A DNA stretch of 64,000 nt. Origin: Clostridia bacterium. GTDB taxonomy: Bacteria > Bacillota > Clostridia > Christensenellales > CAG-138. Made by a program: the position numbers and the translations under genes. Location of the stretch: positions 1,856 through 65,855 of the forward strand of contig JAFXSG010000048.1 in the NCBI GenBank assembly GCA_017525875.1. Reading direction: 5' to 3'. The notes beneath the pieces were generated by a model, which saw only the letters and a program-made list of their open reading frames with translations, had not been told where the DNA came from and ran no database searches. Positions 42,699-58,435 of this stretch are shown piece after piece. Position 1 is the stretch's first letter, and the number at the start of each line of letters is the position of its first letter.

Positions 42699-43709
42699 TC
42701 AATTCGGCTCGATCATCAGGATCAGTCCCGATCTTGATACGCTGTATCTCAGAGCGTTCGAACCAAACCCCGGGATCGTGTATGCCTTATGGGAATCGAT
42801 CAGATCCCGCTCGGCCTGTTCCGCAGAAGCTCTTGTCTTAAACTTCAAATAGAACTTTTTTGAATACCGGAGCTGCTGTGCGGCGATCGCGCTCGCCTGC
42901 TGGAACGAGTATCTGTCAAGAAACCACCCGCGGTACTTGAAATAATCGAACCTCTTGCCGAAGTTCTGCGGAATGAACTGCCCTGCGGCAATAACATGGG
43001 TCCGGAGCAGCTCCTGAAGATCCAGGCAGAAGAAATCATGCGACAGGTTGTCGCCGCCCGCGCCGTTCGTTACCCTCGGATCATCCCAGGTGACGTCGAC
43101 GAAGTAGTATCCGTCGCTGAGCTTTATATAGTTCCACTCATGGTCCACCGCACCGGTCCGTGCCGAACTCGACCTGCCCGCTACGCGGCCGCACTCTACC
43201 CCGATCTTCTGCATCAGGACCTGGAAGGCAGCCGCATACCCGGCGCAAACGGCGCGGCGCTGCACAAGGCAGCCGTAAGCATCGTAGCAATGCGGCTCTG
43301 CCTGCACGTAATCGACGTCGTTAACGATGCGGTCATGCAGATAAAGTATCTGCTCATAAAGGTCCGATGAGCTGCGCATTGCGTCTCTGACGTATCCGGC
43401 GGCGACGTTTTCCAGCTGCCGGCGCATTGCCGGGACGGCGGATAATGCGCATGCGAAGTTTGGCCTGAATTCCAGCGTTATACTGCTGCCGCGGGTCGTG
43501 GTGGTGCTGCTGCTTCCGTTTGAAAGCCAGAAGTATTCCGGGTGATCCCGAAGAACGGCCTTATAGACCCGCTTAACAAAATCGTAGTTTTGCTGCTGAA
43601 ATACCCAAACGGGCTTGTATGACTCTATCAGGCCGACGATCTCATTGTAGCACCTCTGCTCCGCAGCGGTCAGCGTCCCGCTGCCGTTTCCCGAGTTGTT
43701 GAAAAACAT
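42699..43709 (-). CDS. Transglutaminase-like cysteine protease-fold protein (no signal peptide)
   Basis: CAGYAAAFQVLMQKIGVECGRVAG ... DHEWNYIKL.DGYYFVDVTWDD (a Cys-His-Asp triad arrangement). It is the last gene of the operon. Confidence 0.75.
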   Translation of the reverse strand: MFFNNSGNGSGTLTAAEQRCYNEIVGLIESYKPVWVFQQQNYDFVKRVYKAVLRDHPEYFWLSNGSSSTTTTRGSSITLEFRPNFACALSAVPAMRRQLENVAAGYVRDAMRSSSDLYEQILYLHDRIVNDVDYVQAEPHCYDAYGCLVQRRAVCAGYAAAFQVLMQKIGVECGRVAGRSSSARTGAVDHEWNYIKLSDGYYFVDVTWDDPRVTNGAGGDNLSHDFFCLDLQELLRTHVIAAGQFIPQNFGKRFDYFKYRGWFLDRYSFQQASAIAAQQLRYSKKFYLKFKTRASAEQAERDLIDSHKAYTIPGFGSNALRYSVSRSGLILMIEPN

Positions 43710-43732
43710 ATTCGTTCCCTCTCTCCGATCGT

Positions 43733-43966
43733 TTACAGCATCAGCTTTATCTTGTGCAGGAAGTATATGCAGGCTTCCTTTTCGGTGCCGAACTCCATAA
43801 GCTCATATCTTCTCCCGCGTTCACCTCTGAACACGATCCACTTGCCGTTCTCCTCCATGATGCAAAGAGCTTCCTCGGCATAGCGGCCTATACCGCAGTG
43901 ACGGGGCGGCGCTCCGATTTTGACCAATGCCTGCTTAAGCAATTCGATATAGTTTACTTCTTCCAT
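43733..43966 (-). CDS. Small (77 aa) putative immunity protein for the TNT toxin
   Basis: AAGGTGA RBS. It starts 7 nt after the toxin stop. The call rests on position only. Confidence 0.5.
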   Translation of the reverse strand: MEEVNYIELLKQALVKIGAPPRHCGIGRYAEEALCIMEENGKWIVFRGERGRRYELMEFGTEKEACIYFLHKIKLML

Positions 43967-43973
43967 TCCGGGA

Positions 43974-44684
43974 TCACCTTATCTTCATCATTGTTCTGTT
44001 CGGGTTGTTCGGGTTGGACATTTCAGCAAAGCTCTGTGAAAAATGGTACTGCTGTCCGCCGCCGACTTCTCCGAAATTCGGGGCTGCCTTGCCGCTGGTG
44101 CAGTTCACCGGCTTTATGATCTGGTATTCGTGATACTCCTGGGAGTTCTCTTCATAAGGCAGCGACAGTTTCGAATGATCCGTCCCCACATCCGTTGCGT
44201 TGGATCCGAAGTCGCTCCCGTATCTGGCAATGACCTTGCCGGGTTCAAGCGTTGTTTCGTCTATCTTCTCGTTCTTGTCAAAGCCTTCCCCGTCGGAGTG
44301 CTTTGCATACGCGTCCCAGTCTATCGACCACTCGCCCGTCTCGTTGTAGTTTTCGCTGTATTTAATGTATTTCTCATCCTTAACGATCGGCACTTCCGGG
44401 ACAAGCTTGCCGTCCTTATTAAGGGCCGGTTCTTCTTTGGACTGTATAACCGTTTCTTCGCCTTTTTCGCTCTTGGTAAAGCTGACATCCGTCAGCAGTT
44501 CTTCTTCGTATTCATGCGGATCGTATCCGGGGTCGTACAAGTCCTTCTCGCTTTCATCCGTAAACAGATCGCTGTTTTCAGTTTCACCGCTCTCGATGCC
44601 GCTCTCAAAAGCTTCGCCCGAAGATTCGCCGCTTCCGCCCTGGCTTCCGTTATTGCCGGAATCTCCGCCTTCTTCGCCTGGCAT
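43974..44684 (-). CDS. TNT-domain (NAD+ glycohydrolase) toxin with an acidic disordered N-terminus
   Basis: GGGAGGAA RBS. The C-terminus IARYGSDFGS...KLSLPYEENSQEYHEYQIIKPV...GKAAPNFGEVGGGQQYHF matches the TNT consensus (RxG ... LP ... YxVxKP ... GxxAPxFGxxGGGxQ). Confidence 0.75.
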   Translation of the reverse strand: MPGEEGGDSGNNGSQGGSGESSGEAFESGIESGETENSDLFTDESEKDLYDPGYDPHEYEEELLTDVSFTKSEKGEETVIQSKEEPALNKDGKLVPEVPIVKDEKYIKYSENYNETGEWSIDWDAYAKHSDGEGFDKNEKIDETTLEPGKVIARYGSDFGSNATDVGTDHSKLSLPYEENSQEYHEYQIIKPVNCTSGKAAPNFGEVGGGQQYHFSQSFAEMSNPNNPNRTMMKIR

Positions 44685-44733
44685 TTACTGTTCCTCCCTT
44701 GGTTTATTCTTCGCCGCATGATCGGCGCCGCGC

Positions 44734-45138: not shown

Positions 45139-45140
45139 CG

Positions 45141-45923
45141 TTAAGCCTCCTTTGCTCTTGCCTTCCAGTGATCCGGGCGGTGATGGTTATTGTAGTAGTT
45201 CTCCTTCGTATTGTCGCTGCGCCAGCTTTCTTCCGCCTTTGTATGAAGCGTTGAATAGTGTTCCCCGTGTTCCGAATCCGCGGTCAGCTCCGCGAGCGGG
45301 GAATCGTATTCCTGCCCGATATGGTGCAGCTCTATTTGTTCCCCTGTTTTTGCATCAAACGGCGGACGGCCCTCTTCCATAAGCTGCCGATTGGTCATGC
45401 CGGTCTTGGGGTCGACGTAATCCATATCTATATCTTCCCTCACAAGGCAGGTACGCCCATCGACTTCGGTCTCCTTCAGGCCGGCGTTCTGATAGACCTC
45501 CAGCTCCTCCACCGAGGAGATATGATCGTTCACCTCGTCGGAATACTCGCTTTTCTCGTATATCTCGGAACGGTCCGCCTCTTCGTCCGTCTCGCCTTCC
45601 TCGGGCTGTTCTTCCTCCGGAGTTTCCTCCTCGGGCTGTTCCTCCTCCGGAGTTTCCTCCTCGGGCTGTTCCTCCTCGGGCTGTTCCTCCTCCGGAGTTT
45701 CCTCCTCGGGCTGTTCTTCCTCCGGAGTTTCCTCCTCGCCGTTCCCGTCGGACTTATCCATCAGGTCATCGTCGGCGCCTTCTTCGCCTTCATCCCCTTC
45801 GGGCTCCTCCGTTTCAACAAGATCGTCTTCCTCGCCGGGTTCTGAGGACTCATCCATTCCCTGTTCGGGATCATCGCTTTCGTTCGTGGAATCATAATCA
45901 TCTTCAGGGCACATTGCGTTCAC
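45141..45923 (-). CDS. HNH/EndoVII-fold nuclease toxin (LHH-type motif) with an acidic repeat N-terminus
   Basis: C-terminus KTGEQIELHHIGQEYDSPLAELTADSEHGEHYSTLH. The GTG start at 45923 overlaps the ATPase stop (GTGA), and an alternative ATG at 45914 has an AGGAAG RBS. About 120 N-terminal residues are D/E/P-rich. Confidence 0.7.
   Translation of the reverse strand: MNAMCPEDDYDSTNESDDPEQGMDESSEPGEEDDLVETEEPEGDEGEEGADDDLMDKSDGNGEEETPEEEQPEEETPEEEQPEEEQPEEETPEEEQPEEETPEEEQPEEGETDEEADRSEIYEKSEYSDEVNDHISSVEELEVYQNAGLKETEVDGRTCLVREDIDMDYVDPKTGMTNRQLMEEGRPPFDAKTGEQIELHHIGQEYDSPLAELTADSEHGEHYSTLHTKAEESWRSDNTKENYYNNHHRPDHWKARAKEA
45597..45737 (-). repeat. Tandem 30-nt coding repeats (EETPEEEQPE units) inside the nuclease toxin gene
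   Basis: Plus-strand unit ctcctcgggctgttc(c/t)tcctccggagtttc, iterated about 4.5 times. Confidence 0.85.
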
Positions 45924-48610: not shown

Positions 48611-48661
48611 CGCTCTGTCGCCATCCTTCCTCGCCGTTCATCAGCACGTTGCCCGGAGCTG

Positions 48662-50032
48662 TCAAAACAATCCCAGTATCAGTTTCAGTATCACAAATAT
48701 AACGACTATCGTTACGATCGCCGATATCACTTTGGAGAGCACTCCGGAGAGCAGACTGCCTGCATTCGCTCCGAACCCATAAACTATCAGCATCGCGATC
48801 ACCAGTGATACCAGCAAAATGCCGACCAGCGGGAAACTTCGGCGTTTTCCCGAACTCATTCTCGAGAGCATGCCGATCTTCGAAAACGAGAACAGAAAGT
48901 ACAGCACCGTAAGGACCGCCGCAGTGATCAGCCAAGTGGTAAGCAGTTTGCCTAACTTATCGAAAAAATTCCCGCCGGCGCCGGCTGTCAATATGATGAT
49001 GAACGCAAGCACGGCGACGGCGAGTACAGCGTACATCGTGCCGCCGACGGACCGCTGAAAATTGACCGGGCTCCTGTATCCGTTGTTGACGACGTTGATC
49101 CTGCGGGCCATCAGGACGCCGTTTTTGTATTTGCCGCTGACCTCCACCTCGGAATTATCTGCGATCAGCGAGCCGCCCGAGATCGTTCCGTGTACGTTGA
49201 CCTCCACGTCCGTGTACTTCTCATTTCCGAACGTATCGACGCCTTCCGAAACCCGGACCTTAAACCTGTGCAGCAGATCCTCGGTCCTTTGGCCGTACAG
49301 CATTGCGTCAAACAGTTTTTGAGCGAACAGTCTGCGGTATCTTCCGCCTTCAATATCCGAATTGCTGTATTGGGATACCTTGCCCTTGATCTCCGTCGGC
49401 GGGAGCTTTGACTTGCCCATGCTGAACGGCAGCGGTTTTTCCCCGTTTGAGTTTGCCTGATCCGCAAGGCCGGTGTGCTGCGATCCGCTTGGGGTCAGCT
49501 GCCCTTTATCGTCTTTGCCCGTTGGCGTCAGCGGGGGCTGAACAGGCGCAGGCCAGACAGAGCCTCCTGTGTTCCGGCTGCCCCACGTCGGTTTCGCTGC
49601 GCTGCCGGAAGGCGTGCCGCCAAACGCGGAACTCCCGCCCGAAGGAGCGCCGCCGAACGCGGGATTCTTGCCGGAAGGAGCGCCGCCAAACGCGGAACTC
49701 CCGCCGGAAGGAGCGCCGCCGAACGCGGAACTGCCACCCGAAGGAGCGCCGCCAAACGCGGGATTCTTGCCGGAAGAAGCGCCGCTGAACGCGGAACTGC
49801 CGCCGGAAGAAGCGCCGCCGAACGCGGAACTGCCGCCCGAAGGAGCGCCGCCGAACACGGGAGCGCCGCCGGAACGGGTGCTGCCCGAAGGAAGGACCTG
49901 CCTGTTCGCAAGCAAGGCGTCCGGGACCATTTCTGTCTCCAGTTTAGCCGAGCAATAGGGGCAGTTGGTTTGAGTATGGTCCTTGGTATAGGGTCTGCCC
50001 GAACACTTTGGGCAATATTTTACAACGCTCAT
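48662..50032 (-). CDS. Zn-ribbon / xAFGG-repeat / four-TM membrane protein
   Basis: N-terminus YCPKCSGRP...NCPYCSAKL (CxxC..CxxC). Eight (S/P)AFGG-type repeats, a globular domain of about 150 aa, then four C-terminal TM helices. Confidence 0.8.
   Translation of the reverse strand: MSVVKYCPKCSGRPYTKDHTQTNCPYCSAKLETEMVPDALLANRQVLPSGSTRSGGAPVFGGAPSGGSSAFGGASSGGSSAFSGASSGKNPAFGGAPSGGSSAFGGAPSGGSSAFGGAPSGKNPAFGGAPSGGSSAFGGTPSGSAAKPTWGSRNTGGSVWPAPVQPPLTPTGKDDKGQLTPSGSQHTGLADQANSNGEKPLPFSMGKSKLPPTEIKGKVSQYSNSDIEGGRYRRLFAQKLFDAMLYGQRTEDLLHRFKVRVSEGVDTFGNEKYTDVEVNVHGTISGGSLIADNSEVEVSGKYKNGVLMARRINVVNNGYRSPVNFQRSVGGTMYAVLAVAVLAFIIILTAGAGGNFFDKLGKLLTTWLITAAVLTVLYFLFSFSKIGMLSRMSSGKRRSFPLVGILLVSLVIAMLIVYGFGANAGSLLSGVLSKVISAIVTIVVIFVILKLILGLF
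49598..49870 (-). repeat. Coding tandem repeats (GGAPSGGSSAFGG / GKNPAFGG) with core GCGTTCGGCGGC
   Basis: Plus-strand gccgcc(g/a)aacgc recurs about every 45 nt. Confidence 0.9.
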
Positions 50033-50034: not shown

Positions 50035-51612
50035 TCAGTTGCTGTCCTTTTTCGAATTATTGCCGCCGAACGCACCGCGGTTGCCGCCGAACGCACCGCG
50101 GTTGCCGCCGAACGCTCCGGGGTTGCCGCCGTTCCCGCCGAACGCTCCGGAGTTGCCGCCGAACGCACCGTGATTGCCGCCGAAAGCGCCGCGGTTGCCG
50201 CCGAACGCTCCGGGGTTGCCGCCGTTCCCGCCGAAAGCGCCGTGATTGCCGCCGTTCCCGCCGAACGCACCGTGATTGCCGCCGAACGCTCCGGGGTTGC
50301 CGCCGTTACCGCCGAATAAGCCCTTGCCGCTGTTCGGTTTTTCATCAGCGGAAGTGCTGAAGCTGATACGCTTGGTATCATTGTTGTTGTTCTTGTCTTC
50401 GGAAAGCTGTTTGAAGCCGCCGGGGCCGCCGTCTCCGCCGCCCGGTCCGCCGCCGACCGTTGTCGGCAGCTGTACGCCGGTCGAGACAGCGTAGCACAGC
50501 GTTCCCAGTACGACCGCCCACGCAAGGCAGAACATCAATCTCACCATCGAAACAGGCAGTATCCTTGACAGGAACTCCATTATCAGCGCGCCGCCGATGC
50601 AGAGCAGGATATACACAAGAACACTGTTATTCATAGTGCTTTTAATGTTCTGTGCTGCAAGTTTTTTCATCAGCGACCAGAAGACGCCGACTATTGAAAG
50701 GAAACCGATCCTCATCGCGCAGTACAGCCCGTCTTTCTCCATCATGAATCTTGCGGAAAGCAGGTTGCGCTCAAGGTTGTTGGACGCCGCCTTTTTCATG
50801 CTTGCCGCAAGGTTTGAGGCATCGTCGCAATAGACGTAGACGCCGCCGGTCAGGTTTGCGATCCTTTTAAGGAAACCTGAGTTGCAGCCTCCGAAGCCCA
50901 CGCTGCAAATCGAAACGCCGTTGGCAACGCAGTCTTTCGCAACGTCGCGCATACCGAAAGCGGAGCTCCCGCCGTCGCTGAAAAGGATTATCCTCGGTTG
51001 ATCGCCTGCGCCGGTGAGCTTACCTGAACGCAGATCATCCAGGACCGTTCTGACCGAACCCAGGATATTCGTTCCGCCGTATGACTGGAAGTTCAGTTGA
51101 GCGGCGTCGCCGGGAGCATATTTCCCCATACCCTTCAGCAGCGTGGCCCCGGACTCGAATTTATAAACGGCATAAGGAAGTTCTGCCGAATCCTTCATTA
51201 TCTCTTCGATGGCAGAGGGCCTTACGTTTGAGCGGTCGTTTCCCGCCATTGAGCCGGAATCATCGATCAGGAAGATGTATGAGGTCGGCCGGATATCGTT
51301 TTTTCCGCCAAGTTCATACAGGAATTCGAACACACCGGCCAGCAGGAACACCAGGATCAGAACAATGGCTAAAAGCCCGATCGATCCCTTGGTGTTGCGG
51401 GCGTTGTTTGTGTTGCTGAGATCGACCTGAAAATAGCCGCAGGCCGTTACGACAATGCAGAGGATGATCCCGAAGATCAGGAAATAAAGGGCGACGCCAA
51501 GCGGAGTGAACATTTTCTGCGTCAAGGTGTTGAACAGCAGCTCGCCCAGCAGCCAGAACACCACTCCCACTATCAATGATATCAGCGGCAGCTTGATTTT
51601 GTTCTCTTTCAC
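50035..51612 (-). CDS. Polytopic membrane protein with a central MIDAS-vWA domain and a C-terminal GAFGGN repeat tail
   Basis: GTG start. Three N-terminal TM helices. vWA domain YIFLIDDSGSMAGNDRS ... GGTNILG ... IILFSDGGSS, then three more TM helices and 11 xFGG repeats. Its stop is 2 nt from the next start. Confidence 0.8.
   Translation of the reverse strand: MKENKIKLPLISLIVGVVFWLLGELLFNTLTQKMFTPLGVALYFLIFGIILCIVVTACGYFQVDLSNTNNARNTKGSIGLLAIVLILVFLLAGVFEFLYELGGKNDIRPTSYIFLIDDSGSMAGNDRSNVRPSAIEEIMKDSAELPYAVYKFESGATLLKGMGKYAPGDAAQLNFQSYGGTNILGSVRTVLDDLRSGKLTGAGDQPRIILFSDGGSSAFGMRDVAKDCVANGVSICSVGFGGCNSGFLKRIANLTGGVYVYCDDASNLAASMKKAASNNLERNLLSARFMMEKDGLYCAMRIGFLSIVGVFWSLMKKLAAQNIKSTMNNSVLVYILLCIGGALIMEFLSRILPVSMVRLMFCLAWAVVLGTLCYAVSTGVQLPTTVGGGPGGGDGGPGGFKQLSEDKNNNNDTKRISFSTSADEKPNSGKGLFGGNGGNPGAFGGNHGAFGGNGGNHGAFGGNGGNPGAFGGNRGAFGGNHGAFGGNSGAFGGNGGNPGAFGGNRGAFGGNRGAFGGNNSKKDSN
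50056..50325 (-). repeat. Coding tandem repeats (GAFGGN[HRS/GGNP]) with core GCGTTCGGCGGC
   Basis: 21-30-nt units; plus strand gccgccgaacgc(a/t)ccg. Confidence 0.9.
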
Positions 51613-51663
51613 CGATCGTTCACCTTCCTATAAGTAATCGACGTTCCGGCAGATCCGCCGGAT

Positions 51664-51768
51664 GAAAAAACGTTTTTTCACAATCTATACCGAAAGCGCC
51701 GGTCAAGCACGGCGCATTCGGTATAGCTGTTTATGCGCGTCCGCGGCAAGCAAATGCCGCGGACGCGC
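51664..51768 (-). other. Three consecutive hairpins in the 169-nt intra-operon spacer
   Basis: A 14-bp perfect stem GCGCGTCCGCGGCA/TGCCGCGGACGCGC (51735-51768). A 10-bp stem CTATACCGAA/TTCGGTATAG enclosing an inner stem (51685-51726). The palindrome GAAAAAACGTTTTTTC (51664-51679). Confidence 0.7.
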
Positions 51769-51781: not shown

Positions 51782-54700
51782 TTATAAGTCTCCGGTCTCC
51801 TTGAGGTCCTCAAGGGCTTTTGCGAAAGCCTTGAAGTTGCCGATAAGCGTTTCTGCGTCGTTCGGCCCTGCGCACTTCTTCGGAATATTGTAATACTCGA
51901 AGTAATTGGAGGATGCAAGCTGCTTTCCGATATCCCTGTTCCTTGCGGCGATATCCCTCATTGTGAACAGAGACGAGTTAAGGGCGGCATTGATGTTGTC
52001 AAGCACGTCCTGGCAAGACGGCAGCTTGGCGCCGCGGTTCTTGCTCTGATAATCATCGCATGCCCTGTCTATCGCGTCGGTCACGACGTCATTCAGCGCT
52101 TCCCTGACGAAAGCGGAGAAGACGATAAAGTCCATAAAGGGAACGTCGATCTTCTCGTTCTTCTTCTTGTAGTCGTCGAGGAAGAGGATCGGCTTGTCGT
52201 GTTCGTTGGCGCTGTACGTGCAGAACCAACCCTTATCGGGATCATTGGAGATCATACCGCACTGCCTTGCCCTGATATAGTAGCTGACGTTCCTGTCGAA
52301 CTTCGAAACGCCGGCAAGGTTTTCGAACAGGTTCATGCTCTTATACTCGTTGTACTTCTCAAGCAGCAGCCTGTGCATGACCATATCGGAACGGACGATG
52401 CGGTAAATGTTCTTGAGGTCGAACCTGTTGCCCGGCATGTTGGTCTGCCTTGACTTAAGGCTGTCGTTATTGATAGCCCTTTCAAGCCGAATCTCCGAAT
52501 AATACTTATGATTGTCCTCAGCGTTGATGCTGTCAAGCGCGTCTTTCCAGGTGTGGTCGCCTCCTCCGCTCCGGAGCTCGACGATCTTCTTTTCGATCCT
52601 GTCGATGAATTCCGGACTGGTGTCCCCAAGGACGCAGACGACGTATTTGTTGGTTGGATCCGTGTAGATATACCCGTTCTCGAGACCGAATTCGACGATC
52701 TTTTTGATCTCGTCATACATCTCTACGTCGTTATTGAACACCTTGCCGTTCTTTATGCAGCGTTTATCGTCCTGGATACGCGCAGAAAACTCGGGCTTAT
52801 TGATCGTTTGAACAAAATAGTCCTCCGTATCCTTGCCGTAGATCTCGGGAAGGTAAGTCTGCCATTTTTCCGAGACCTCGTTCAGATGACGCCCGGCTGA
52901 ATTCGAGACCAGTTTTTCGGCATTGAAATACTCGGACGCATAGTCCTTCATGTTCCTGACCATCTCGGGGGAGAAAGGCCTGATGCATTCGAATTCGGAG
53001 ATCTCGGTAATGAGGCCGTCCGCTACGCTCGTGCTGTATCCGCCGGGATATCTTTGCATCAGCTCCGCTTCGATCTCACGGTTAAGGTTGGGAGTATCGG
53101 CCAGGAGCACGATGTCAATGGTTTTGTCAAACTTGTTGGCAGCGGTGGTCAGTCTTTCATCGAAGGCAATCAGCGCGCTGCCGGAGATGGTATCCACTAT
53201 TCTCACGGCAGCTTCACGCAGCGCGTTGTTCCGGAGAATAACATTATTCCAGATATTGTTCAAAGCCTCGATATCTATGGCCTCGTTATTGCCGTTGCCC
53301 CAGACGATCTGTTCCTTATTGCCGTATACGAGCACGACGAACTTCTCGAGCTTGTCCCCGATGATCGGCTGTATCGCGTCGCTGAACACATTACGGAGTT
53401 TATCACAGAGCAGATCGGGAGAATTGATATACGTCTGCCAGTTCCCGCGCTCGTCGGCGCTGAACAGCAGATCGGTCAGGTTATTCTGGATCAGCTGCAT
53501 AGTCTCGGGATCAGCTACCATGCCTTCGAACATCTTCTCGAACAAGTCGTTCCGTTCCATCGCGCCGTCCAGATTGAACGCGTTGAGTGAGAACACGGTG
53601 CGCCTTTCCTCATGCCTGAGATAGTATTTTGCGAAGATATCCGAATCCTCGTTCAGGATATCGGCAAGGTTCATTATGATCGGAGTGTAGATCTCGAAGG
53701 TCTCGTTGCTGTATGTGCGCAGCTGATTGATCAGCATCCCGATGAACTGCTGCATGTAATTGTTTATAAAGAGGCTGTCGAAATACGCATCCGAATATGC
53801 TGCGCACGCGCCGATAAAGGTTTCGACCTCCTCGTCATGCGGGTTGGAATCCTTCTGCAGAGTTTCTTTTGCGGCCTCAAGATTGTTCTGCTGCTGCGCA
53901 AGCGCTGTATTCGCTTGCGTGAGCGCGTCCGGAAGCGTGTTATAGATATCGGTAAGGATTCCGATAAGTCCCTGGATGTGAACGTTGCCGCCTCCGTCAG
54001 TACCTGCGAGGATGACGTTCGCGCCTACGGGGCCGTACTCCTCCCAAAGATTAGCCGCCCTGCCGTCAGGCATATAGAAAGCGCTCTTGCCCTCAAGGAG
54101 CTGCTGCACGGTATAAACGATGTTGGAAACGCATGTATCAAGGCCGGTCATGGAGTTTATCTTTATCTCCGCCGCTTCTTTCGCCGCCAGGATGGATTCA
54201 TCAAGGCCTTTCATCTTCCCCAGCCACTGTGTGCCGATCCTTTGAGGATACTTATCTTTTCCGATCCTTAAGCTCTGTGAGCTGATGCCCTTTTTGTCTT
54301 TGATCGAACGAAGTATGTCATGGGCCGAGTCGATACCGAGGCCGCCGGCGATATAGTGCGCGTCATCGGTGGTGAATTTGAACGCACGCTTATAGCGCTC
54401 AATGATCTGCGCAAACGCCTTGTTCGCGACGTACGCCGCCATCTCGTTCTTCGGCAGATACACGGAGCGGTAGCCGAACGAGGAGAAGGAGTTGTTCATA
54501 AACGCGGGGAAATAGGTATTCTTTATGCCGCAGGGATCCGGATCGACCCCTGCTTCGGGAATACCCACGACGTCCGTTTCCCAGGTGCCGACGTTTCTTC
54601 CGATATTGCACAGCGTACTGATGATCGACTGGCGCTTTGTTCTGTCAACTGCGTCGATCTGCCCCGGGCGGAACATGTTGAGGATGCTTTCGGCCACGCA

Positions 54701-55615
54701 CTCGATCGTCTCTTCAAACCTGTTGACCTGAGGCGTAGCGGAGACCATGAAAGCATACCCGCGCTTGAAGATCGGCTTGCTGCAGGTCCGTTCTCCGCCC
54801 GCCGGGTCTACAACGTGCAGCGTATATACCGGTTCTATCTCTGCCTCGCTGCCAACGTTCATAAAATAGCTGAGCTCCTTCATTGCCGCATAGCCGTTCT
54901 GCTGGACCGTTTTCCATTTAGCGGCATTCTCGCCGACTTCCGGAATGGATCTCTGAACGTCCGGAGTGTAGAATATGCCGTAAAGATTTGTCGATATGCC
55001 GTCTTCCAGGCCCAATTTCTCGAGGATCATCCTAACCATATAGGAGATATCGATAAAGGTGCCGCTGCCGGTGCCGCCGGAAATACCGGCGCAGATAACC
55101 ACTTCGATAATGCCGTTTGCGGAAAAGCCTTTGATCAGGTTTTTGATCGTTTTCTCAAGCGCGGCATATTTTTGAGTACCGCAGAGCAAAACACGGCCGA
55201 CTACACGCCTGCTCTTGGCGCCGGTCTCATCGATGATCTCCGAGGGCACGTCCGTACTCAGCCAGTCCTTGACGATCTCGGGCCGGTCGATGAGCAGGCG
55301 CTGTGAATCCTTATCATACAGCTCAAAGATCTCATTGACAACAATGTTGCCTCCGTTCTCCCGTTTCAAAGCCTTGACGTCGTTTTCGTCAGTATCTATG
55401 CACATGAACTTTACGTCAGGGTTCTGTTCAAACTTGGCCTCGTAGGCGCCTTTGATCTTGCTGACGGTCTGACAGCCCGCACCGCCGATGCCGATGAACA
55501 GTATCCTGCTGTTGGTGTTCAGCTTATGCCTGTTGACCTTGCCCAGAATGCTGCCGCCTTTTTTTACGGACAGTTCTTTGAGCAGTTCTCTTGCTTCTTC
55601 CTGTGTGATAGGCAT
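51782..55615 (-). CDS. Giant (1277 aa) tubulin/FtsZ-like GTPase-domain protein
   Basis: AAGGAGAAAG RBS. The N-terminal 230 aa or so carry ILFIGIGGAGCQTV (T1-like GxGGxG), CIDTDEND, ETGAKSRRVVGRV (T3-like) and VVICAGISGGTGSGTFIDISY (tubulin signature GGGTGSG). The remaining ~1000 aa are mostly helical-looking and unassigned. Confidence 0.8.
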   Translation of the reverse strand: MPITQEEARELLKELSVKKGGSILGKVNRHKLNTNSRILFIGIGGAGCQTVSKIKGAYEAKFEQNPDVKFMCIDTDENDVKALKRENGGNIVVNEIFELYDKDSQRLLIDRPEIVKDWLSTDVPSEIIDETGAKSRRVVGRVLLCGTQKYAALEKTIKNLIKGFSANGIIEVVICAGISGGTGSGTFIDISYMVRMILEKLGLEDGISTNLYGIFYTPDVQRSIPEVGENAAKWKTVQQNGYAAMKELSYFMNVGSEAEIEPVYTLHVVDPAGGERTCSKPIFKRGYAFMVSATPQVNRFEETIECVAESILNMFRPGQIDAVDRTKRQSIISTLCNIGRNVGTWETDVVGIPEAGVDPDPCGIKNTYFPAFMNNSFSSFGYRSVYLPKNEMAAYVANKAFAQIIERYKRAFKFTTDDAHYIAGGLGIDSAHDILRSIKDKKGISSQSLRIGKDKYPQRIGTQWLGKMKGLDESILAAKEAAEIKINSMTGLDTCVSNIVYTVQQLLEGKSAFYMPDGRAANLWEEYGPVGANVILAGTDGGGNVHIQGLIGILTDIYNTLPDALTQANTALAQQQNNLEAAKETLQKDSNPHDEEVETFIGACAAYSDAYFDSLFINNYMQQFIGMLINQLRTYSNETFEIYTPIIMNLADILNEDSDIFAKYYLRHEERRTVFSLNAFNLDGAMERNDLFEKMFEGMVADPETMQLIQNNLTDLLFSADERGNWQTYINSPDLLCDKLRNVFSDAIQPIIGDKLEKFVVLVYGNKEQIVWGNGNNEAIDIEALNNIWNNVILRNNALREAAVRIVDTISGSALIAFDERLTTAANKFDKTIDIVLLADTPNLNREIEAELMQRYPGGYSTSVADGLITEISEFECIRPFSPEMVRNMKDYASEYFNAEKLVSNSAGRHLNEVSEKWQTYLPEIYGKDTEDYFVQTINKPEFSARIQDDKRCIKNGKVFNNDVEMYDEIKKIVEFGLENGYIYTDPTNKYVVCVLGDTSPEFIDRIEKKIVELRSGGGDHTWKDALDSINAEDNHKYYSEIRLERAINNDSLKSRQTNMPGNRFDLKNIYRIVRSDMVMHRLLLEKYNEYKSMNLFENLAGVSKFDRNVSYYIRARQCGMISNDPDKGWFCTYSANEHDKPILFLDDYKKKNEKIDVPFMDFIVFSAFVREALNDVVTDAIDRACDDYQSKNRGAKLPSCQDVLDNINAALNSSLFTMRDIAARNRDIGKQLASSNYFEYYNIPKKCAGPNDAETLIGNFKAFAKALEDLKETGDL

Positions 55616-55635
55616 GTTTCTTTCTCCTTTGGTGA

Positions 55636-58233
55636 TTATTTGGTATATTGAATCGATACGTGGCTGACAGGCGTGTTGCCGTCGTTGTCCTTATCGCCCG
55701 CCTTTACCGAAATATCGATATTGATCGTCCTTCCATTCGGGTTAACAGTGGTCTTTTTCTTGAACCCGGGCTCATGGAACATCACCGACTTGCCGGAGTT
55801 CTTGATGATCGTTCCTCGCTTACCGAACGGAGCGGTGCCGCAAAGCATGACGCTGCTCAGCGTCGCCTTGAATGAACTTTCGACGAATTCTCTGACTTCG
55901 TCGTAGAGGATGCTGGTTTTGCCGTTTTCATTCATAGCCTGGCCGTACTTGGAGACGAATTCCTCAAGGACCGAATACAGCGATCTTTTCTTAAGCCTGC
56001 CGCTCAGCGAGACCGGCGTGTTGAATTGGTTGCTCTTTTGTTTTTCCTCCTCGCGCACTTTATCCTTAAGGTTATCGGTATTACTGCTGAAGAATCCGCC
56101 GTTCCGATCGGACGGTGTGGCTGCCTGTCCGCCGAACGCCGAGCCGCCGCCGAACGCCGAACCGCCGCCAAACGCAGAACCGCTGCCGAACGCCGAGCCG
56201 CCGCCAAACGCCGAGCCGCCAAACGCAGAACCGCCGAACGCCGAGCCGCTGCCGAATGCCGAGCCGCCTGTTGTGTTTCCTGACGGAGCCGCTGACTTGA
56301 ACGGGTCGTTTACGACGGGCGGTACTCCCTTCCCGGGCGCCGTCCTCGTCCTGTTGACCTGATGCTTACCATCGGGCATGGAATTTGGGTTGCGGTAGAC
56401 GTCTTCTTCGTTATGGAACGTGCCGGAACCGTCCACGCAGCCTTTTGCGAGCAGCAGCACTTTCATTTTGCCGGGAACGCGGATCGTTGCCCTGACGAGT
56501 GCGGAGACTATCGCCAGCGCTATGAGCGCGATGCCGAGGATTATGCCGATTATTATCGCAAGCGCTCCGGGATCGTCCACGCTGACCTTAAACGTTGATT
56601 CAACGGAATTGTTCTGTGCGTCCGTGAATTGCAGAGTGACGAGGGTGCTCGCCCACCAGCCCTTAACGCCGGTTATGTTCACCTTATCCCCGTCAATGGC
56701 AACGTCGGCAACGTCCGCCGGGGAAACGCTCTTTACGGTGACTTCCACAGGGTCGTTTTCCGCATCGTAAACGTACCGGAAGATATCGCTGACGGTAACC
56801 GTTTTGCCCTTTCTGACGCGGGTGTCGGGGATATCCTTAACAAGCTCCACGGGAGTGTTGCTTGACATGACCGTCAGGGTGTCTTCGCGATACAGGGTGT
56901 CCCATTCGAGCCTAATCTTTACGTCGTAAAAACTGTCTTCCGAGACCACAAAGCTCCCGACGAACGATCTGCCGTCGCGCTGCAGGTCGAGCACTCTCGT
57001 ATCGTCAGGGTTCGCTCTTGAAACGATGGTCGCTTTCGCGGAGGTTACGCAGTCGTAGATCTCGTCGTTCTCGAGAGCGGCGTCGTCGTAAGTCAGCCAG
57101 GTCCTGATCCCGACAACGTCGTTCGTATACGCAACGCCTACGGGGTTGCCCTCCGGGAAAACGAGCTGGCTGGTGAGGTTCATTTTATAATGCTCCAGCA
57201 GGCCGATGTGGATATCGTCCCCCTGAATGTTGCTGACGGAAAGCAGCCATGTGCCGGGCTGAGGCATTATGACCTTTATGCTTGCCGCAGTCACGTCCGT
57301 ATCGAAGCGGACGTTGCCGGAGTTGGCCAGCTGGACCTCTCTGCCGCTGGGATCGAACAACCTGATCTTGCCTTCTTTAATGGCGTTCGGGTTGCCGCCG
57401 GAAATGCGGATATTTGCCTCTATAACGCTCGGGTTGATGGGTATCTCGCACTGGTGGGCGCCGCCGTCGCCGGGGATCACGCCTACCGGCAGATAGATAA
57501 GATCACATTCCTCCGCAAGCAGATCGATGAAAAGCTGCTCGATCTCGCCGGTGCTGTGTATCGCGCGGAACGATCCGCCCGTGCTTTCCGCAATATTGCT
57601 GAGCTTTTTCAGGCCTTCTCCGTCCGCGCCCATCGAGCTTTCGCCCGAGGAAGTTATATAGTCGTATCCGACGCAGTAAATATGGCAGTTGTTGCTCTTT
57701 GCCCACTTTATCGCATCGACCTCGTTTTCCTCGCAAGCGGCAAGCGCGAGCAGATTATAGCCAAAGTCGTTCACGCCGTCGGTGAACAGGATGATCGCCC
57801 TTGCATGATCTTCGTCCGAACAGCTGTTGAGCAGATCGGTCGCGGCAAGCACCGCGTTGCCGATGCCCGTATCGCCCTTGTACTTGATCGAATCGACCGC
57901 GCTTCGGACCGTTTCGATCCCGGTAAACTCCTGCAGTGCGATCAGCGCGGGGTTGCCCGCATGGTCCGTCGTCAGGATCGTCGGATCCGTGTTGAAGCTG
58001 ATGATGCCCACACGGCTGTCCTGCGCCGGCATCATATTGACGAGCATCCTGATGGCTGACAGAGCTGTTTTTTCTTTATCGGAATGCAGCATCGATCCGC
58101 TGGAGTCGATGACGACCACCAGATCCAAAGGCTTATACTCTTTTTCGGTCTCCAATTCTTCCGCAAAGCATTCGAATGCTGTGAAAGTCAAAAACAGCAG
58201 GGCTAACAAAAGAGCGGCTATCCTCTTCATCAC
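55636..58233 (-). CDS. Signal-peptide MIDAS-vWA protein with Ig-like region, single TM and a cytoplasmic SAFGG-repeat tail plus C-terminal domain
   Basis: Signal peptide MMKRIAALLLALLFLTFTAFECFA. vWA domain LDLVVVIDSSGSMLHSD ... GDTGIG ... IILFTDGVND. TM helix ALAIIIGIILGIALIALAIVSALV followed by RATIRVPGKMK. Eight SAFG repeats and a 160-aa C-terminal domain. Confidence 0.85.
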   Translation of the reverse strand: MMKRIAALLLALLFLTFTAFECFAEELETEKEYKPLDLVVVIDSSGSMLHSDKEKTALSAIRMLVNMMPAQDSRVGIISFNTDPTILTTDHAGNPALIALQEFTGIETVRSAVDSIKYKGDTGIGNAVLAATDLLNSCSDEDHARAIILFTDGVNDFGYNLLALAACEENEVDAIKWAKSNNCHIYCVGYDYITSSGESSMGADGEGLKKLSNIAESTGGSFRAIHSTGEIEQLFIDLLAEECDLIYLPVGVIPGDGGAHQCEIPINPSVIEANIRISGGNPNAIKEGKIRLFDPSGREVQLANSGNVRFDTDVTAASIKVIMPQPGTWLLSVSNIQGDDIHIGLLEHYKMNLTSQLVFPEGNPVGVAYTNDVVGIRTWLTYDDAALENDEIYDCVTSAKATIVSRANPDDTRVLDLQRDGRSFVGSFVVSEDSFYDVKIRLEWDTLYREDTLTVMSSNTPVELVKDIPDTRVRKGKTVTVSDIFRYVYDAENDPVEVTVKSVSPADVADVAIDGDKVNITGVKGWWASTLVTLQFTDAQNNSVESTFKVSVDDPGALAIIIGIILGIALIALAIVSALVRATIRVPGKMKVLLLAKGCVDGSGTFHNEEDVYRNPNSMPDGKHQVNRTRTAPGKGVPPVVNDPFKSAAPSGNTTGGSAFGSGSAFGGSAFGGSAFGGGSAFGSGSAFGGGSAFGGGSAFGGQAATPSDRNGGFFSSNTDNLKDKVREEEKQKSNQFNTPVSLSGRLKKRSLYSVLEEFVSKYGQAMNENGKTSILYDEVREFVESSFKATLSSVMLCGTAPFGKRGTIIKNSGKSVMFHEPGFKKKTTVNPNGRTINIDISVKAGDKDNDGNTPVSHVSIQYTK
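56128..56268 (-). repeat. Coding tandem repeats (GGSAFGG) with core GCGTTCGGCGGC
   Basis: Plus strand gccgccgaacgccgagcc / gccgccaaacgcagaacc, in 18-24-nt units. Confidence 0.9.
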
Positions 58234-58407
58234 GCAATGTTTCCTCCGTTATGATCTTGATATTGGCTGTACGGGGAGCAAAGTGCGAATATGATCTTTG
58301 CCCAAGGCGGCACTTGCTTCGGCCGTGATAAATAAGAAAAAGGCAGTTTGAATTGGCAAGTCAGTACGGTACACACCCTATATCACCTTTCCTAAACCTA
58401 CTATTTT

Positions 58408-58435
58408 ATTATATCATATCATTAGGCAGAGTCAA
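58408..58435 (-). promoter_or_regulatory. Near-consensus sigma-A promoter of the ten-gene operon
   Basis: On the minus strand: TTGACT (58435-58430), 16-nt spacer, TATAAT (58413-58408). This implies a leader of about 170 nt before the ATG at 58233. Confidence 0.6.

Follow-up and report, generated by a model that had tools for sequence, protein, structure and literature searches.

A Clostridial ten-gene locus joining a tubulin/vWA module to a VirB4/HerA-like ATPase and toxin-immunity pairs: a possible toxin export system

Gene layout and transcription signals

Ten co-directional genes occupy the minus strand from 58233 to 42699 in a gut Clostridia bacterium, within a 64-kb window that is the whole stretch of DNA analyzed (Table 1). 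Comparative genomics divides the block in two, vWA-tubulin-vWA followed by a Zn-ribbon/OB/4-TM protein (ZnR), a VirB4/HerA-like ATPase and toxin-immunity pairs. The open reading frames, lengths and gaps given by an earlier sequence-only reading were all reproduced; gaps computed from the coordinates are 20, 169, 2, 51, -4, 2, 49, 7 and 23 nt, and a Shine-Dalgarno-like sequence lies 5′ of all ten starts. One junction was revised. The 4-nt GTGA overlap described between the ATPase and LHH genes is probably a 5-nt gap, since homologous toxins begin with 'MC...' and the independently called gene is 257 aa long, which together point to ATG 45914 as the true LHH start; the remaining gaps stand. The identical ten-gene set was found again on independent metagenome contigs.

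A promoter before the block and a hairpin after it had also been proposed, and both are present. The putative promoter is an 11/12 match to consensus and has the top sigma-70 score in the region scanned. The terminator stem-loop, GGGATGGGA...TCCCATCCC and then TTTTGTTTT (42646-42614), is legible in the sequence itself; the simple hairpin scan missed it because its loop is above the limit of that scan. The claim of horizontal acquisition, based on about 50% GC in the block and about 62% in the flanks, was overstated. GC content is 54.2% in the block, 58.8-59.6% in the left flank and 49.4% in the right flank; at 54% versus 59% the contrast is modest, so composition supports horizontal transfer only weakly.

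The 169-nt gap 3′ of the tubulin gene folds into a very stable structure (minimum free energy -92.2 kcal/mol, z = -8.4) comprising a 14-bp GC stem (51768-51735), a long stem (~51730-51680), an A6/U6 hairpin (51679-51664) and a 7-bp stem (51662-51645). The gap had no match to an Rfam family and no promoter-like site in the scan. A strong hairpin (z -2.7 to -5.5) directly follows the tubulin stop codon in every homologous locus examined, a comparison of 12 distinct intergenic sequences that are mutually unrelated in sequence. The cluster is a candidate internal attenuator or mRNA-stabilizing element, and the conservation of the hairpin argues for attenuated read-through over a single uniform transcript.

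Table 1 Features of the ten-gene block, in order of transcription
Feature	Coordinates	Strand	Basis or description
Putative sigma-70-type promoter	58408..58435	-	TTGACT-16-TATAAT, extended -10 TG; ~175 nt 5′ of first gene
vWA1, 865 aa (864 if start is ATG 58230)	55636..58233	-	Pfam VWA 7.6e-13, VWA_2 8.3e-13
Repeat array in vWA1	56129-56268		18-nt period (TRF)
Tubulin/FtsZ-superfamily GTPase, FtsZl1 (Tubulin_2) family, 1277 aa	51782..55615	-	Pfam PF13809 7.4e-43
Stem-loop cluster	51645..51768	-	within 169-nt gap 3′ of tubulin gene
vWA2, 525 aa	50035..51612	-	Pfam VWA_2 2.2e-07, VWA 9.9e-05
Repeat array in vWA2	50060-50316		21/30-nt period (TRF)
ZnR, 456 aa	48662..50032	-	CxxC pairs, alignment, AF2 model
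In-frame tandem repeat in ZnR	49604..49874	-	xxSSAFGGAPSGG tract; 33-nt period, 8.2 copies (TRF)
VirB4/HerA-class P-loop ATPase, 896 aa	45920..48610	-	Pfam DUF87 (HerA) 2.9e-13
Toxin 1, LHH HNH/EndoVII nuclease, 260 aa	45141..45923	-	Pfam LHH 5.2e-19
Immunity 1, SUKH_5 (SMI1/KNR4 superfamily), 134 aa	44734..45138	-	Pfam SUKH_5 5.7e-08
Toxin 2, TNT NAD+ glycohydrolase, 236 aa	43974..44684	-	Pfam TNT 4.3e-19
Presumed immunity 2, 77 aa	43733..43966	-	position only
Transglutaminase-core (Cys-His-Asp) protein, 336 aa	42699..43709	-	Pfam Transglut_core 8.9e-09
Hairpin and T-tract terminator	42614..42646	.	between operon and convergent FAD-oxidoreductase gene

Proteins encoded by the block

The domain calls made earlier from the letters (vWA, Tubulin_2, VWA_2, DUF87/HerA, LHH, SUKH_5, TNT and Transglut_core) all pass Pfam. 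The vWA1 protein has a signal peptide, an extracellular MIDAS vWA domain with a beta-rich region, one TM segment (~aa 560-585) and a cytoplasmic tail, basic at pI 9.5, that includes (G)SAFGG repeats as well as a C-terminal domain; orthologs hold the equivalent slot in loci L006-L010, L016, L018, L020 and L062-L071. The polytopic vWA2 has ~3 TM segments on either side of an extracellular MIDAS vWA domain (TM positions taken from orthologs) and ends in a basic cytoplasmic tail (pI 9.9) that contains GAFGGN repeats. In the tubulin-like protein, the GTPase domain (aa 39-405, nt 54401-55501) carries SGGTGSG, legible in the translation as are the DxSxS motifs of the vWA proteins, and the last ~870 aa form a C-terminal extension without annotation. 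This protein also matches PF00091 at 4.3e-07, under the gathering cut-off of that family, and no sequence relative was found in PDB. Full-length homologs (at least 28% identity) lie on contigs that match in length those of ATPase homologs.

ZnR, which has no match in Pfam, NCBIfam or PADLOC, comprises an N-terminal CxxC...CxxC zinc ribbon, an SSAFGG-repeat linker, an OB-fold-like beta-barrel (aa ~215-325) and four TM helices. Its cysteines are invariant and its barrel motifs conserved in the alignment; in Foldseek, the AF2 model (pLDDT 81) weakly matches the OB folds of PriB/SSB (best E 2.9e-3, TMt ~0.55). The repeat arrays of ZnR, vWA1 and vWA2 have a common 12-nt core, GCGTTCGGCGGC (Ala-Phe-Gly-Gly), and ZnR proteins that are nearly identical but 423, 429 or 440 aa long, compared with 456 aa here, indicate repeat copy-number variation.

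The ATPase has a family-specific N-terminal domain (1 to ~350), a core (~350-745) with Walker A GLTGSGKT and Walker B LIEEAH, a Cys-containing helical C-terminal domain and no TM segment. The Walker motifs are invariant in a 23-sequence alignment. The best Foldseek matches of its AF2 model (pLDDT 82.9) are TrwK/VirB4 (8rtd_O, 8.8e-15) and VirB4 4ag6_B (TMt 0.74), followed by HerA of the NurA-HerA and SIR2-HerA complexes; PADLOC also gives HerA matches.

Both toxins carry the catalytic domain at the C-terminus (LHH, aa 177-258; TNT, aa 145-219) behind a polyanionic leader, with 64 D/E and 3 K/R in aa 1-125 of toxin 1, which includes a 15/45-nt tandem repeat (45598-45738), and 27 D/E and 6 K/R in aa 1-95 of toxin 2. 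Such K/R-poor leaders occur in the window in these two proteins only. With a pI of ~4, they are complementary in charge to the cytoplasmic parts of ZnR, vWA1 and vWA2 (pI 9.4-9.9). The earlier remark that neither toxin has a delivery module held in the Pfam search, where no signal, LXG, WXG, Rhs or PAAR domain was detected. The 77-aa protein has no family match in Pfam, NCBIfam or PADLOC; its homologs come after the TNT gene in L013, L018, L068, L069, L071 and L072. The transglutaminase-like protein has a partial match to the NCBIfam MAG6410 family (9.7e-24) and lacks both a signal peptide and an acidic leader.

Conservation and variation across genomes

The ATPase family is large, with 3003 representative clusters at 50% identity (E<=1e-30), and a membrane partner is always beside the ATPase: ZnR in Clostridia, immediately 5′ in 22 of 24 loci (clusters c1 and c12), and single-TM, PASTA or polytopic proteins elsewhere. 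The order vWA-tubulin-vWA-ZnR-ATPase-toxin is conserved, being shared by 10 of the 19 Clostridial genome loci that were informative and by additional loci from metagenomes, spanning 47-100% ATPase identity, and the triad keeps its order and orientation 5′ of ZnR-ATPase while tubulin identity drops to 28-60%; the other nine loci have no triad, making it facultative. In other lineages HSP70-like, dynamin-like or DO-GTPase/GAP1 genes take its place.

Linkage of the ATPase to variable toxin/immunity cassettes, raised as a neighborhood test, was found in Clostridia, Verrucomicrobiota/Lentisphaerota and Bacilli. Across 51 genome loci retrieved via the ATPase alone, the gene at most 35 nt 3′ of it encodes a toxin whose C-terminal domain varies, and a small immunity gene comes next. 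This arrangement is seen in 21 of 23 Clostridial loci, in Verrucomicrobia (L036, L042, L043, L046, L047), Paenibacillus (L053, L055), Jeotgalibacillus (L056) and others, and is as predicted for a toxin-handling, exporting ATPase. The domains (LHH, WHH/Colicin-DNase, GH-E, Endonuclea_NS_2, TNT, ADP-ribosyl-cyclase-like and RelA_SpoT-like) are all classic modules of polymorphic toxins.

An LHH toxin ortholog lies directly 3′ of the ATPase in many loci, including those of Verrucomicrobia and Paenibacillus, with SUKH_5 3′ of it in 13 genome loci and 10 of 14 metagenome loci. TNT toxins fill the equivalent slot in L006, L011, L013, L014, L018, L068 and L069-71. The last gene is recurrent yet replaceable (Transglut_core in L010, L062 and L068; Peptidase_M15 in L069-71). 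Toxin N-termini are constant and C-termini variable, and leader type tracks ATPase subfamily: Clostridial leaders are D/E/S/G-rich (K/R <=6%), often starting 'MC[DSE]' and with ELY motifs, and toxins beside the long-ATPase subfamily have a different, Ala-rich and helical N-terminus.

Toxin export, intracellular defense and known systems

We tentatively read the locus as an ATPase-driven export or delivery system for polymorphic toxins, a possibility we place somewhat short of even, with the tubulin/vWA module as envelope scaffold or sensor. The constant core would be the membrane-docked ATPase. Pumps of the VirB4/HerA class otherwise transport polyanionic DNA or secretion substrates. The LHH nuclease and TNT NADase would be produced alongside their own immunity proteins, and an ATPase hexamer seated on ZnR would recognize the polyanionic leaders; ATP-driven threading would strip off the immunity protein and pass the toxin on to, or across, the membrane component, for possible delivery into other cells. 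The tubulin-like GTPase and the two vWA proteins, the latter having extracellular MIDAS domains and basic FG-repeat cytoplasmic tails, would make up a facultative module of the envelope and may position, gate or trigger the pump; in other lineages HSP70-like, dynamin-like or DO-GTPase/GAP1 modules stand in its place. The terminal transglutaminase-core protein or M15 peptidase may aid wall crossing or remodeling.

Export is favored by the ATPase-toxin linkage, the polymorphic domains behind constant leaders, the VirB4/TrwK structural match with invariant Walker motifs and an ever-adjacent membrane partner, the complementary charges, the lack of a Pfam-detectable delivery domain on the toxins, and the preserved triad despite its divergence. 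It also draws on three SUKH relatives (L077, L080, L081) that lie in unrelated contexts away from any LHH toxin or ATPase gene, a pattern anticipated if toxins come in from other cells. Against this, the identity of these orphans is just 33-40%, and roles beyond immunity are possible for SUKH proteins. Against export, all recognized toxins act in the cytoplasm and have no receptor-binding or translocation domain, and no wall channel is evident, nor, for the Verrucomicrobial and proteobacterial loci, an outer-membrane channel. Also counting against it are the constant toxin set in the nearest clade (68-100% ATPase identity), a Paenibacillus locus that adjoins a McrC-like restriction gene, and accessory modules (tubulin/vWA, HSP70, DO-GTPase/GAP1, WYL regulator) that were defined as intracellular conflict systems (PMC7159879). 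The main rival, which we consider somewhat less likely than export, is a membrane-proximal HerA-effector abortive-infection system.

Compared with known systems, the ATPase ranks VirB4/TrwK of secretion above HerA among structural matches, although its likeness to HerA of the anti-phage SIR2-HerA and DUF4297-HerA complexes is about equal, which weakens the export reading. The proposed ATPase/leader pair would follow the same logic as EssC/LXG of type VIIb secretion. The sequence-only reading recognized no named system, which is partly so. Makarova & Koonin 2010 (PMC2875224) described the module of a tubulin and two vWA proteins, one of the latter polytopic and bearing its vWA domain outside the cell, in silico as FtsZl1/vWA operons, and Kaur et al. 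2020 (PMC7159879) described it as the firmicute "tubulin theme" within GAP1-N2 DO-GTPase conflict systems; more distant homologs of the present tubulin lie inside such DO-GTPase/GAP1 loci. The ZnR, ATPase and toxin-immunity module is undescribed as far as we found in the literature, and the cluster looks like an undescribed mode of bacterial toxin handling, probably export.

Operon layout and conservation across genomes

Re-reading of the window bore out the ten minus-strand ORFs of the operon (58233-42699), their lengths and all nine intergenic distances. They encode, in order, the von Willebrand factor A protein vWA1, a tubulin-like protein, a second vWA protein (vWA2), a 456-aa Zn-ribbon/OB-like/4-TM protein (ZnR), an 896-aa VirB4/HerA-class ATPase, an LHH toxin, a SUKH_5 immunity protein, a TNT toxin, a presumed immunity protein of 77 aa and a transglutaminase-core protein. 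A Shine-Dalgarno-like sequence precedes each of the ten starts, as the sequence-only reading had described for most of them. The promoter it had proposed (TTGACT-16-TATAAT, 58435-58408, with a TG before the -10) was the top sigma-70 match in 17 kb, and the terminal hairpin with its T-tract (42646-42614) can be read directly in the sequence. All of the domain calls hold in Pfam: VWA or VWA_2 in two proteins, Tubulin_2 (PF13809, E 7.4e-43, score 147.6 bits with the cut-off at 27, alignment to positions 1-355 of the 356 in the profile), DUF87/HerA (PF01935, 2.9e-13), LHH (5.2e-19), SUKH_5, TNT (4.3e-19) and Transglut_core. ZnR and the 77-aa protein had no family match in Pfam, PADLOC or NCBIfam, the NCBIfam search of the operon proteins gave sub-threshold matches only, and an Rfam search of the operon returned no match. 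The start of the LHH gene is revised, most likely to the ATG at 45914 ('MCPEDD...'), since homologues begin in this way and an independent gene call gave 257 aa. The GC contrast from which horizontal acquisition had been argued is smaller, at 54.2% for the block, 58.8-59.6% to its left and 49.4% to its right, and horizontal transfer was rejected as a weak case on these values. Upstream of the operon (58234-64000), GC is lower still (49%, down to 44%); encoded there are a lipoprotein-like 314-aa protein (59438-60382, minus strand), an ECF-type sigma factor and DUF4367 anti-sigma-like pair (~60929-62199, plus strand, Pfam labels taken from an identical contig) and small secreted proteins.

A search for ATPase homologues found hundreds of full-length relatives in Clostridia, and scanning genomes with a profile, one genome for each species, gave 51 loci spanning Clostridia, Verrucomicrobiota/Lentisphaerota, Actinomycetota, Chloroflexota, Proteobacteria and Bacilli. 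ORFs were called in all loci, searched with the ten window proteins and then clustered. Loci from other genomes or metagenome contigs are numbered L, and protein clusters c. The order vWA1-tubulin-vWA2-ZnR-ATPase-toxin-immunity is intact in L006-L010, L013, L016, L018, L020 and L027, and the full order is also found in metagenome lineages L062, L063/64, L067/68 and L069-71, with ATPase identity falling to 47% and tubulin identity ranging from 28 to 60%. The same ten-gene set is present on independent metagenome contigs. A toxin-like gene lies directly after the ATPase gene (<=35 nt) in 21 of the 23 Clostridial loci and also in numerous loci of distant lineages, and LHH and SUKH genes follow ATPases of only 29-37% identity in Verrucomicrobia (L036, L043) and Paenibacillus (L053, L055). 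Variable toxin cassettes come after the ATPase gene in Clostridia, Verrucomicrobiota/Lentisphaerota and Bacilli, which upholds the link between apparatus and toxins that had been drawn from the window. The vWA1-tubulin-vWA2 triad is facultative, being absent from 9 of 19 informative Clostridial loci; these nine keep ZnR, ATPase and toxin. Judged by these comparisons, the multi-gene system is genuine and conserved and has a wide distribution.

When 1.84 billion representatives were searched with a profile, 3003 clusters fell into the ATPase family at E<=1e-30, and the best 150 of these mostly cover the family-specific N-terminal domain as well as the ATPase core. Members of the family, which numbers ~3000 clusters at the 50% identity level, occur in Bacillota, Verrucomicrobiota, Actinomycetota, Chloroflexota and Proteobacteria. 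A scan of IMG/VR with the ATPase profile gave two remote matches, both to the ATPase domain only, which argues that the system is not phage-borne.

The slot of ZnR is filled differently in other clades. In Verrucomicrobia it holds HSP70-like proteins and a WYL/WCX regulator (HSP70-like proteins also occur in L023/L026), and dynamin-like GTPases occupy it in Paenibacillus and Jeotgalibacillus (two to four) and in L051 (one). Elsewhere the slot holds a PASTA membrane protein, MotA/ExbB-like proteins or a ClpB-like AAA protein and a Ser/Thr kinase. A small protein downstream of the toxin-immunity pair in Verrucomicrobial loci L042, L043 and L047 (cluster c20, ~167-192 aa) has a signal/TM segment, a coiled coil, a second TM segment and a C-terminal CxxC...CxxC zinc ribbon, and may be the counterpart of the Clostridial ZnR. 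Genes for DO-GTPase2 and GAP1-N2/GAP1-M lie immediately 5' of ZnR-ATPase-toxin in L019/L065 (728-5229, a Eubacterium MAG), and weak DO-GTPase-like and AAA genes are found in two Ruminococcus loci (L024/L040, ~4530-5990); these genes tie the ATPase-toxin module physically to the systems of Kaur et al.

Several further neighbors were seen. The cultured, complete-genome strain Paenibacillus chitinolyticus KFRI-Sea08-06 (L055; NZ_CP173427, 1604770-1626935) carries the distant dynamin variant, with four dynamin-like GTPase genes around those for a single-TM protein, an ATPase of 1046 aa, an LHH toxin and a SUKH protein and, upstream, a McrC-like gene (DUF2357 and PDDEXK_7); this organism is practical for experiments. 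In L010, from a red-deer Eubacterium MAG, two more Tubulin_2-like genes (18737-22011; 478 and 603 aa) lie some 4 kb downstream of the operon and may represent a second tubulin system of the DO-GTPase type. Just 3' of the toxin cassettes, L007 (14259-16226) and L018 (19347-21068) each encode a protein that combines a TIR-like N-terminus with a TM segment and leucine-rich repeats; large polytopic proteins (cluster c18) also recur there. In the divergent loci L022 (5810-6070) and L025 (12517-12804), an acidic helical protein of 86-95 aa (cluster c41) follows the ATPase, with no recognizable toxin. The last gene of the operon encodes a transglutaminase-core protein or an M15 peptidase depending on the locus, and both are plausibly wall-active enzymes.

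Toxin cassettes, ATPase and membrane partner

The toxins carry LHH, WHH/Colicin-DNase, GH-E, Endonuclea_NS_2, TNT and ADP-ribosyl-cyclase-like domains, one weak RelA_SpoT match, and several other HExxH-containing sequences without a known domain; a PDB sequence search with two of the unassigned C-termini gave nothing useful. A predicted cognate immunity gene lies directly 3' of each toxin gene, with SUKH_5 after LHH, SUKH_6 after WHH and a conserved gene of 77-81 aa after TNT. No known trafficking domain was found in the toxins by Pfam, in agreement with the sequence-only reading. All Clostridial toxins begin with a leader rich in D, E, S and G and nearly devoid of K and R, often starting 'MC[DSE]' and containing [ST]ELY-like motifs; the immunity proteins have no such leader. 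The first 125 residues of the LHH toxin include 64 D/E and 3 K/R, and the first 95 of the TNT toxin 27 D/E and 6 K/R; among ORFs of at least 120 aa in the 64-kb window, such an acidic, K/R-poor start is limited to these two. This one leader type is joined to LHH, WHH, GH-E, TNT, ADP-ribosyl-cyclase-like, RelA_SpoT-like and unassigned domains. Toxins adjoining a long-ATPase subfamily (1050-1200 aa) have instead an Ala-rich helical N-terminus ('MAIEAVAAVAAKEVA', 'MAVQALGAAALEGG', 'MPLIESSVMGASALGAAE'). Constant parts of polymorphic toxin systems serve trafficking (PMC3482391; PMC7159879). The toxins described here follow the grammar of polymorphic toxins: the N-terminus is constant and goes with the ATPase subfamily, the toxic C-terminus varies, and a predicted immunity gene lies downstream. 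Leader length differs widely between LHH orthologs (toxins of 191-368 aa), and in the window a 15/45-nt tandem repeat within the LHH leader (45598-45738) encodes an EEQPEEETPEE tract.

A metagenome scan with the single SUKH protein had no match, and one with a SUKH profile recovered 14 loci. SUKH_5-type genes with 33-40% identity to the operon immunity gene stand alone at L080 (1335-1763), L081 (5911-6336) and L077 (816-1283), with no LHH toxin or ATPase nearby and with ComEC-like genes (L080, L081) or metabolic genes (L077) as neighbors, and these are candidate orphan immunity genes. In the remaining informative metagenome loci an LHH gene lies upstream, as does the ATPase gene if the contig is long enough.

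Structure prediction places the ATPase close to VirB4. The AF2 model (pLDDT 82.9) had its best Foldseek match in VirB4/TrwK of the R388 type IV system (8.8e-15) and also matched 4ag6, the C-terminal domain of VirB4 (TMt 0.74); next came HerA from the NurA-HerA complex and from the anti-phage SIR2-HerA and DUF4297-HerA complexes. Sequence searches agree with this placement. The PF01935 match and a Foldseek probability of 1.00 to both VirB4 and HerA assign the protein to the HerA/FtsK/VirB4 superfamily of P-loop pumps, with a predicted hexameric-pump fold. The Walker motifs GLTGSGKT and EEAH are invariant in the alignment, no TM segment was found, and an FtsK_SpoIIIE match spans just 37 residues around Walker A. 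NCBIfam gave partial matches to Ced DNA-translocating ATPases and HerA, and PADLOC gave partial HerA matches (E 1e-11 at best), with mad8 as the top match.

In Clostridia, ZnR starts with a zinc ribbon at its N-terminus, which a variable low-complexity linker joins to a conserved beta-barrel; four TM helices follow. In its model (pLDDT 81) the barrel is OB-like, with weak matches to PriB/SSB (E ~3e-3), and its ligand may be a polyanion such as DNA or the acidic leader of the toxins. ZnR, vWA1 and vWA2 contain in-frame tandem repeats that differ in period and have a common 12-nt core, GCGTTCGGCGGC (Ala-Phe-Gly-Gly). All three tracts are predicted from TM topology to be cytoplasmic and resemble the FG tracts of nucleoporins; the cytoplasmic parts of the three proteins, with pI values of 9.4-9.9, are basic and carry the opposite charge to that of the leaders. 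Near-identical ZnR proteins from other samples have 423, 429 or 440 aa rather than 456, and so repeat copy number varies between strains. FG-type tracts are found in some homologs, not all, and the ZnR repeats were rejected as a marker of tubulin-module loci owing to a poor correlation.

The gap after the tubulin gene has the 169 nt first reported; it is not a neutral spacer and folds strongly. Every homologous locus examined (L006-L010, L013, L016, L018, L020, L062, L063, L067, L069) has a strong hairpin right after the tubulin stop; position and strength are conserved, the sequences are unrelated, and several are followed by U-tracts. A scan of the gap found no promoter-like site. This arrangement suggests attenuated read-through that would set the ratio of tubulin and vWA1 to the downstream products, and the stem-loops are possibly an internal attenuator or a processing or stability element.

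Sequence features within the operon (window coordinates)
Feature	Position	Strand	Remarks
Conserved cytoplasmic OB-like domain of ZnR	48662-49420 (aa 205-456)	-	model
AFGG repeats, ZnR	49604-49874	-	33-nt period
AFGG repeats, vWA2	50060-50316	-	21/30-nt period
AFGG repeats, vWA1	56129-56268	-	18-nt period
Stem-loops directly 3' of the tubulin gene	51645-51768	-	-92 kcal/mol, z = -8.4; no Rfam match

Toxin export, defense and other readings

The sequence comparisons suggest that the operon is a polymorphic toxin system with a new ATPase-centered apparatus, and there is a substantial chance that it represents a new secretion route. That it exports or delivers its toxins we consider only slightly short of an even chance. 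This reading is favored by immunity families typical of delivered toxins, tandem toxin-immunity pairs, a trafficking-type leader on a variable toxin, a secretion ATPase as the top structural match, a membrane partner always adjacent to the ATPase, and relatives of the SUKH immunity gene that stand alone in unrelated contexts. A more specific model, which is tentative and somewhat doubtful as a whole, is that the ATPase family marks an unrecognized pathway of protein export or of delivery from cell to cell. Here the VirB4/HerA-class pump would thread toxins by their leader (polyanionic, or Ala-rich and helical in other clades) through the Zn-ribbon/OB/TM partner, with the tubulin serving as scaffold or trigger and dynamin- or HSP70-like NTPases doing so elsewhere. 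If this model is true, it would describe a new type of secretion system in gut and rumen Clostridia and assign a first function to the FtsZl1 tubulin family.

It is possible, although on balance unlikely, that the operon is instead a membrane-proximal abortive-infection or defense system, which the sequence-only reading had named as the alternative. By analogy with SIR2-HerA and DUF4297-HerA, the HerA-like ATPase and the immunity proteins would restrain nuclease and NADase effectors, the envelope modules (vWA, tubulin, HSP70, dynamin, DO-GTPase) would report phage attack or membrane damage, and the ATPase would then free or activate the effectors inside the producer. Resemblance of the ATPase to anti-phage HerA (Foldseek, PADLOC) is consistent with this, as are effector chemistries that parallel known HerA partners and accessory modules common to GAP1-N2 DO-GTPase conflict systems, including the DO-GTPase2 and GAP1 genes upstream of ZnR-ATPase in L019/L065. 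So are the WYL/WCX regulator of Verrucomicrobial loci, McrC-like and Card1-like neighbors, toxins without entry domains, and diderm versions without an outer-membrane component. However, the immunity genes are dedicated ones of exported-toxin families (SUKH_5, SUKH_6) and several toxin-immunity pairs occur in tandem; to our knowledge, HerA-effector systems have no immunity proteins, which counts against defense. The leaders are disordered polyanionic tracts and not folded adaptor domains, orphan immunity genes occur elsewhere, IMG/VR holds just two remote matches, and no PADLOC system model fits.

The tubulin/vWA membrane-remodeling module and the ATPase-toxin module could also be independent, functionally uncoupled neighbors, which we regard as improbable. 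The loci that dispense with the triad, distant tubulin homologs found with DO-GTPase/GAP1 and without the ATPase, and the conserved hairpin between the tubulin gene and the genes downstream would fit such uncoupling, but 10 genome loci and at least 4 more metagenome lineages agree in gene order, orientation and close spacing despite identities of 28-60% (tubulin) and 47-68% (ATPase). In addition, no promoter-like site lies in the post-tubulin gap, both modules include proteins with AFGG-type repeats, and all full-length close tubulin homologs checked adjoin the ATPase. A DNA-handling machine at the membrane (uptake, export or degradation), in which nucleic acid would be moved by the motor together with the OB-fold protein, the HNH nuclease acting as a working part and not as a toxin, has in its favor the Ced and HerA matches, the PriB/SSB-like fold and first-position effectors that are mostly nucleases, but is very improbable given non-nuclease effectors in the same slots (TNT, ADP-ribosyl-cyclase-like, RelA/SpoT-like and HExxH proteins), a cognate immunity gene for every nuclease, the weakness of the OB match, and no further competence or conjugation genes in the operon by Pfam.

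If the core reading, export or delivery of toxins, is true, it would give a role to a very large uncharacterized ATPase family and show how gut and rumen Clostridia deal with many of their 'leaderless' nuclease and NADase toxins. It would also supply a concrete, testable output, toxin deployment, for the FtsZl1 tubulins and for the tubulin/vWA, HSP70 and DO-GTPase modules, on which there have been in-silico predictions only since 2010 and 2020. Either outcome would be new biology, whether an export route or a HerA-based abortive-infection design that uses immunity proteins.

Relation to known systems

Likeness to type VII secretion (T7SSb/LXG) lies in an FtsK/HerA-superfamily ATPase beside small membrane partners in a Gram-positive host, and in toxins with a constant N-terminal module, variable nuclease or NADase C-termini (TNT and HNH types) and adjacent immunity genes, including SUKH. 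ATPases of the EssC/YukA type have FHA domains, TM segments and three FtsK-like P-loop domains. In contrast, the window ATPase has a single P-loop domain, no FHA and no TM segment, and is nearer to VirB4/HerA than to EssC. As the sequence-only reading had stated, the operon contains no T7SS parts (no WXG100, LXG, EsaA, EssA or EssB domains in Pfam). The window leader is a disordered polyanionic tract whereas the LXG domain is helical, and a tubulin homolog and vWA proteins are attached to the window system. Membership in type VII secretion was rejected on the single P-loop, the lack of a TM segment and the lack of WXG/LXG matches.

VirB4 of type IV secretion, including the toxin-secreting X-T4SS, is the best structural match over both domains of the ATPase (8rtd, 7o42, 4ag6). 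VirB4 relies on VirB3, a small membrane protein whose gene immediately precedes its own, and type IV systems can export antibacterial toxins. The operon differs in having no VirB6, VirB8, VirB10, VirD4, relaxase or pilin homologs and a sequence identity to VirB4 of only 10-17%. Membership was rejected, as the other nine operon proteins match no T4SS family in Pfam or NCBIfam.

HerA-effector anti-phage systems (SIR2-HerA/Nezha, DUF4297-HerA) likewise place a HerA-class ATPase of similar core structure beside an NADase or nuclease effector. The window effectors differ in being polymorphic and leader-bearing with predicted immunity proteins, and the ATPase has another N-terminal domain (~350 aa) as well as its own membrane partner; the matches of PADLOC HerA models are confined to parts of its ATPase domain. 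No PADLOC defense-system model fits the operon, which has no SIR2, DUF4297 or further mad genes, and the two-gene HerA-effector unit was rejected on the absence of SIR2 and DUF4297 and the partial HerA matches.

Further known relatives concern the tubulin half. Makarova and Koonin (2010) defined FtsZl1 and its link to vWA proteins, with FtsZl1 beside at least one vWA gene with an intact MIDAS motif, often membrane-associated, and predicted a role in membrane remodeling (PMC2875224). Kaur et al. (2020) described GAP1-N2 DO-GTPase systems, composed of one or more DO-GTPase genes and a GAP1 (GAP1-N2/GAP1-M) gene, and among them a firmicute theme in which C-terminally extended tubulins go with a pair of vWA proteins, one being polytopic and having its vWA domain outside the cell, besides HSP70 and kinase themes (PMC7159879). 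The window has all parts of the former arrangement: the FtsZl1/Tubulin_2 protein bears the signature [SAG]GGTG[SA]G as SGGTGSG and is flanked on both sides by vWA genes with DxSxS motifs, a signal peptide and TM segments. It also matches the firmicute theme in its PF13809 tubulin with a long C-terminal extension, its pair of vWA proteins, of which the polytopic one has an extracellular vWA domain, and its membrane-proximal setting; the window operon has one tubulin gene and the theme two. PDB sequence searches with the tubulin and vWA1 gave nothing useful, with no solved tubulin relative found by sequence. The claim that the gene combination had no name thus stands in part, since the tubulin/vWA half is a known in-silico module and the ZnR-ATPase-toxin half appears undescribed. 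No description of ZnR, a VirB4/HerA-like ATPase and polymorphic toxins as one module was found in the literature searched, coverage of which was partial. The texts of PMC2875224 and PMC7159879 mention neither ZnR, a VirB4/HerA-like ATPase or toxin cassettes for those systems nor three themes recurring around an ATPase-toxin module. As for the DO-GTPase systems, distant homologs of the window tubulin sit in DO-GTPase2/GAP1-N2 loci (L057-L059), and one ATPase-toxin locus (L019/L065) retains DO-GTPase2 and GAP1. PF19993, PF19975, PF20013 and PF20014 were absent from the ten operon proteins and from the upstream genes of the identical contig; in place of a DO-GTPase and GAP1, the window operon carries the 4-TM ZnR, the VirB4/HerA-like ATPase and toxin-immunity cassettes.
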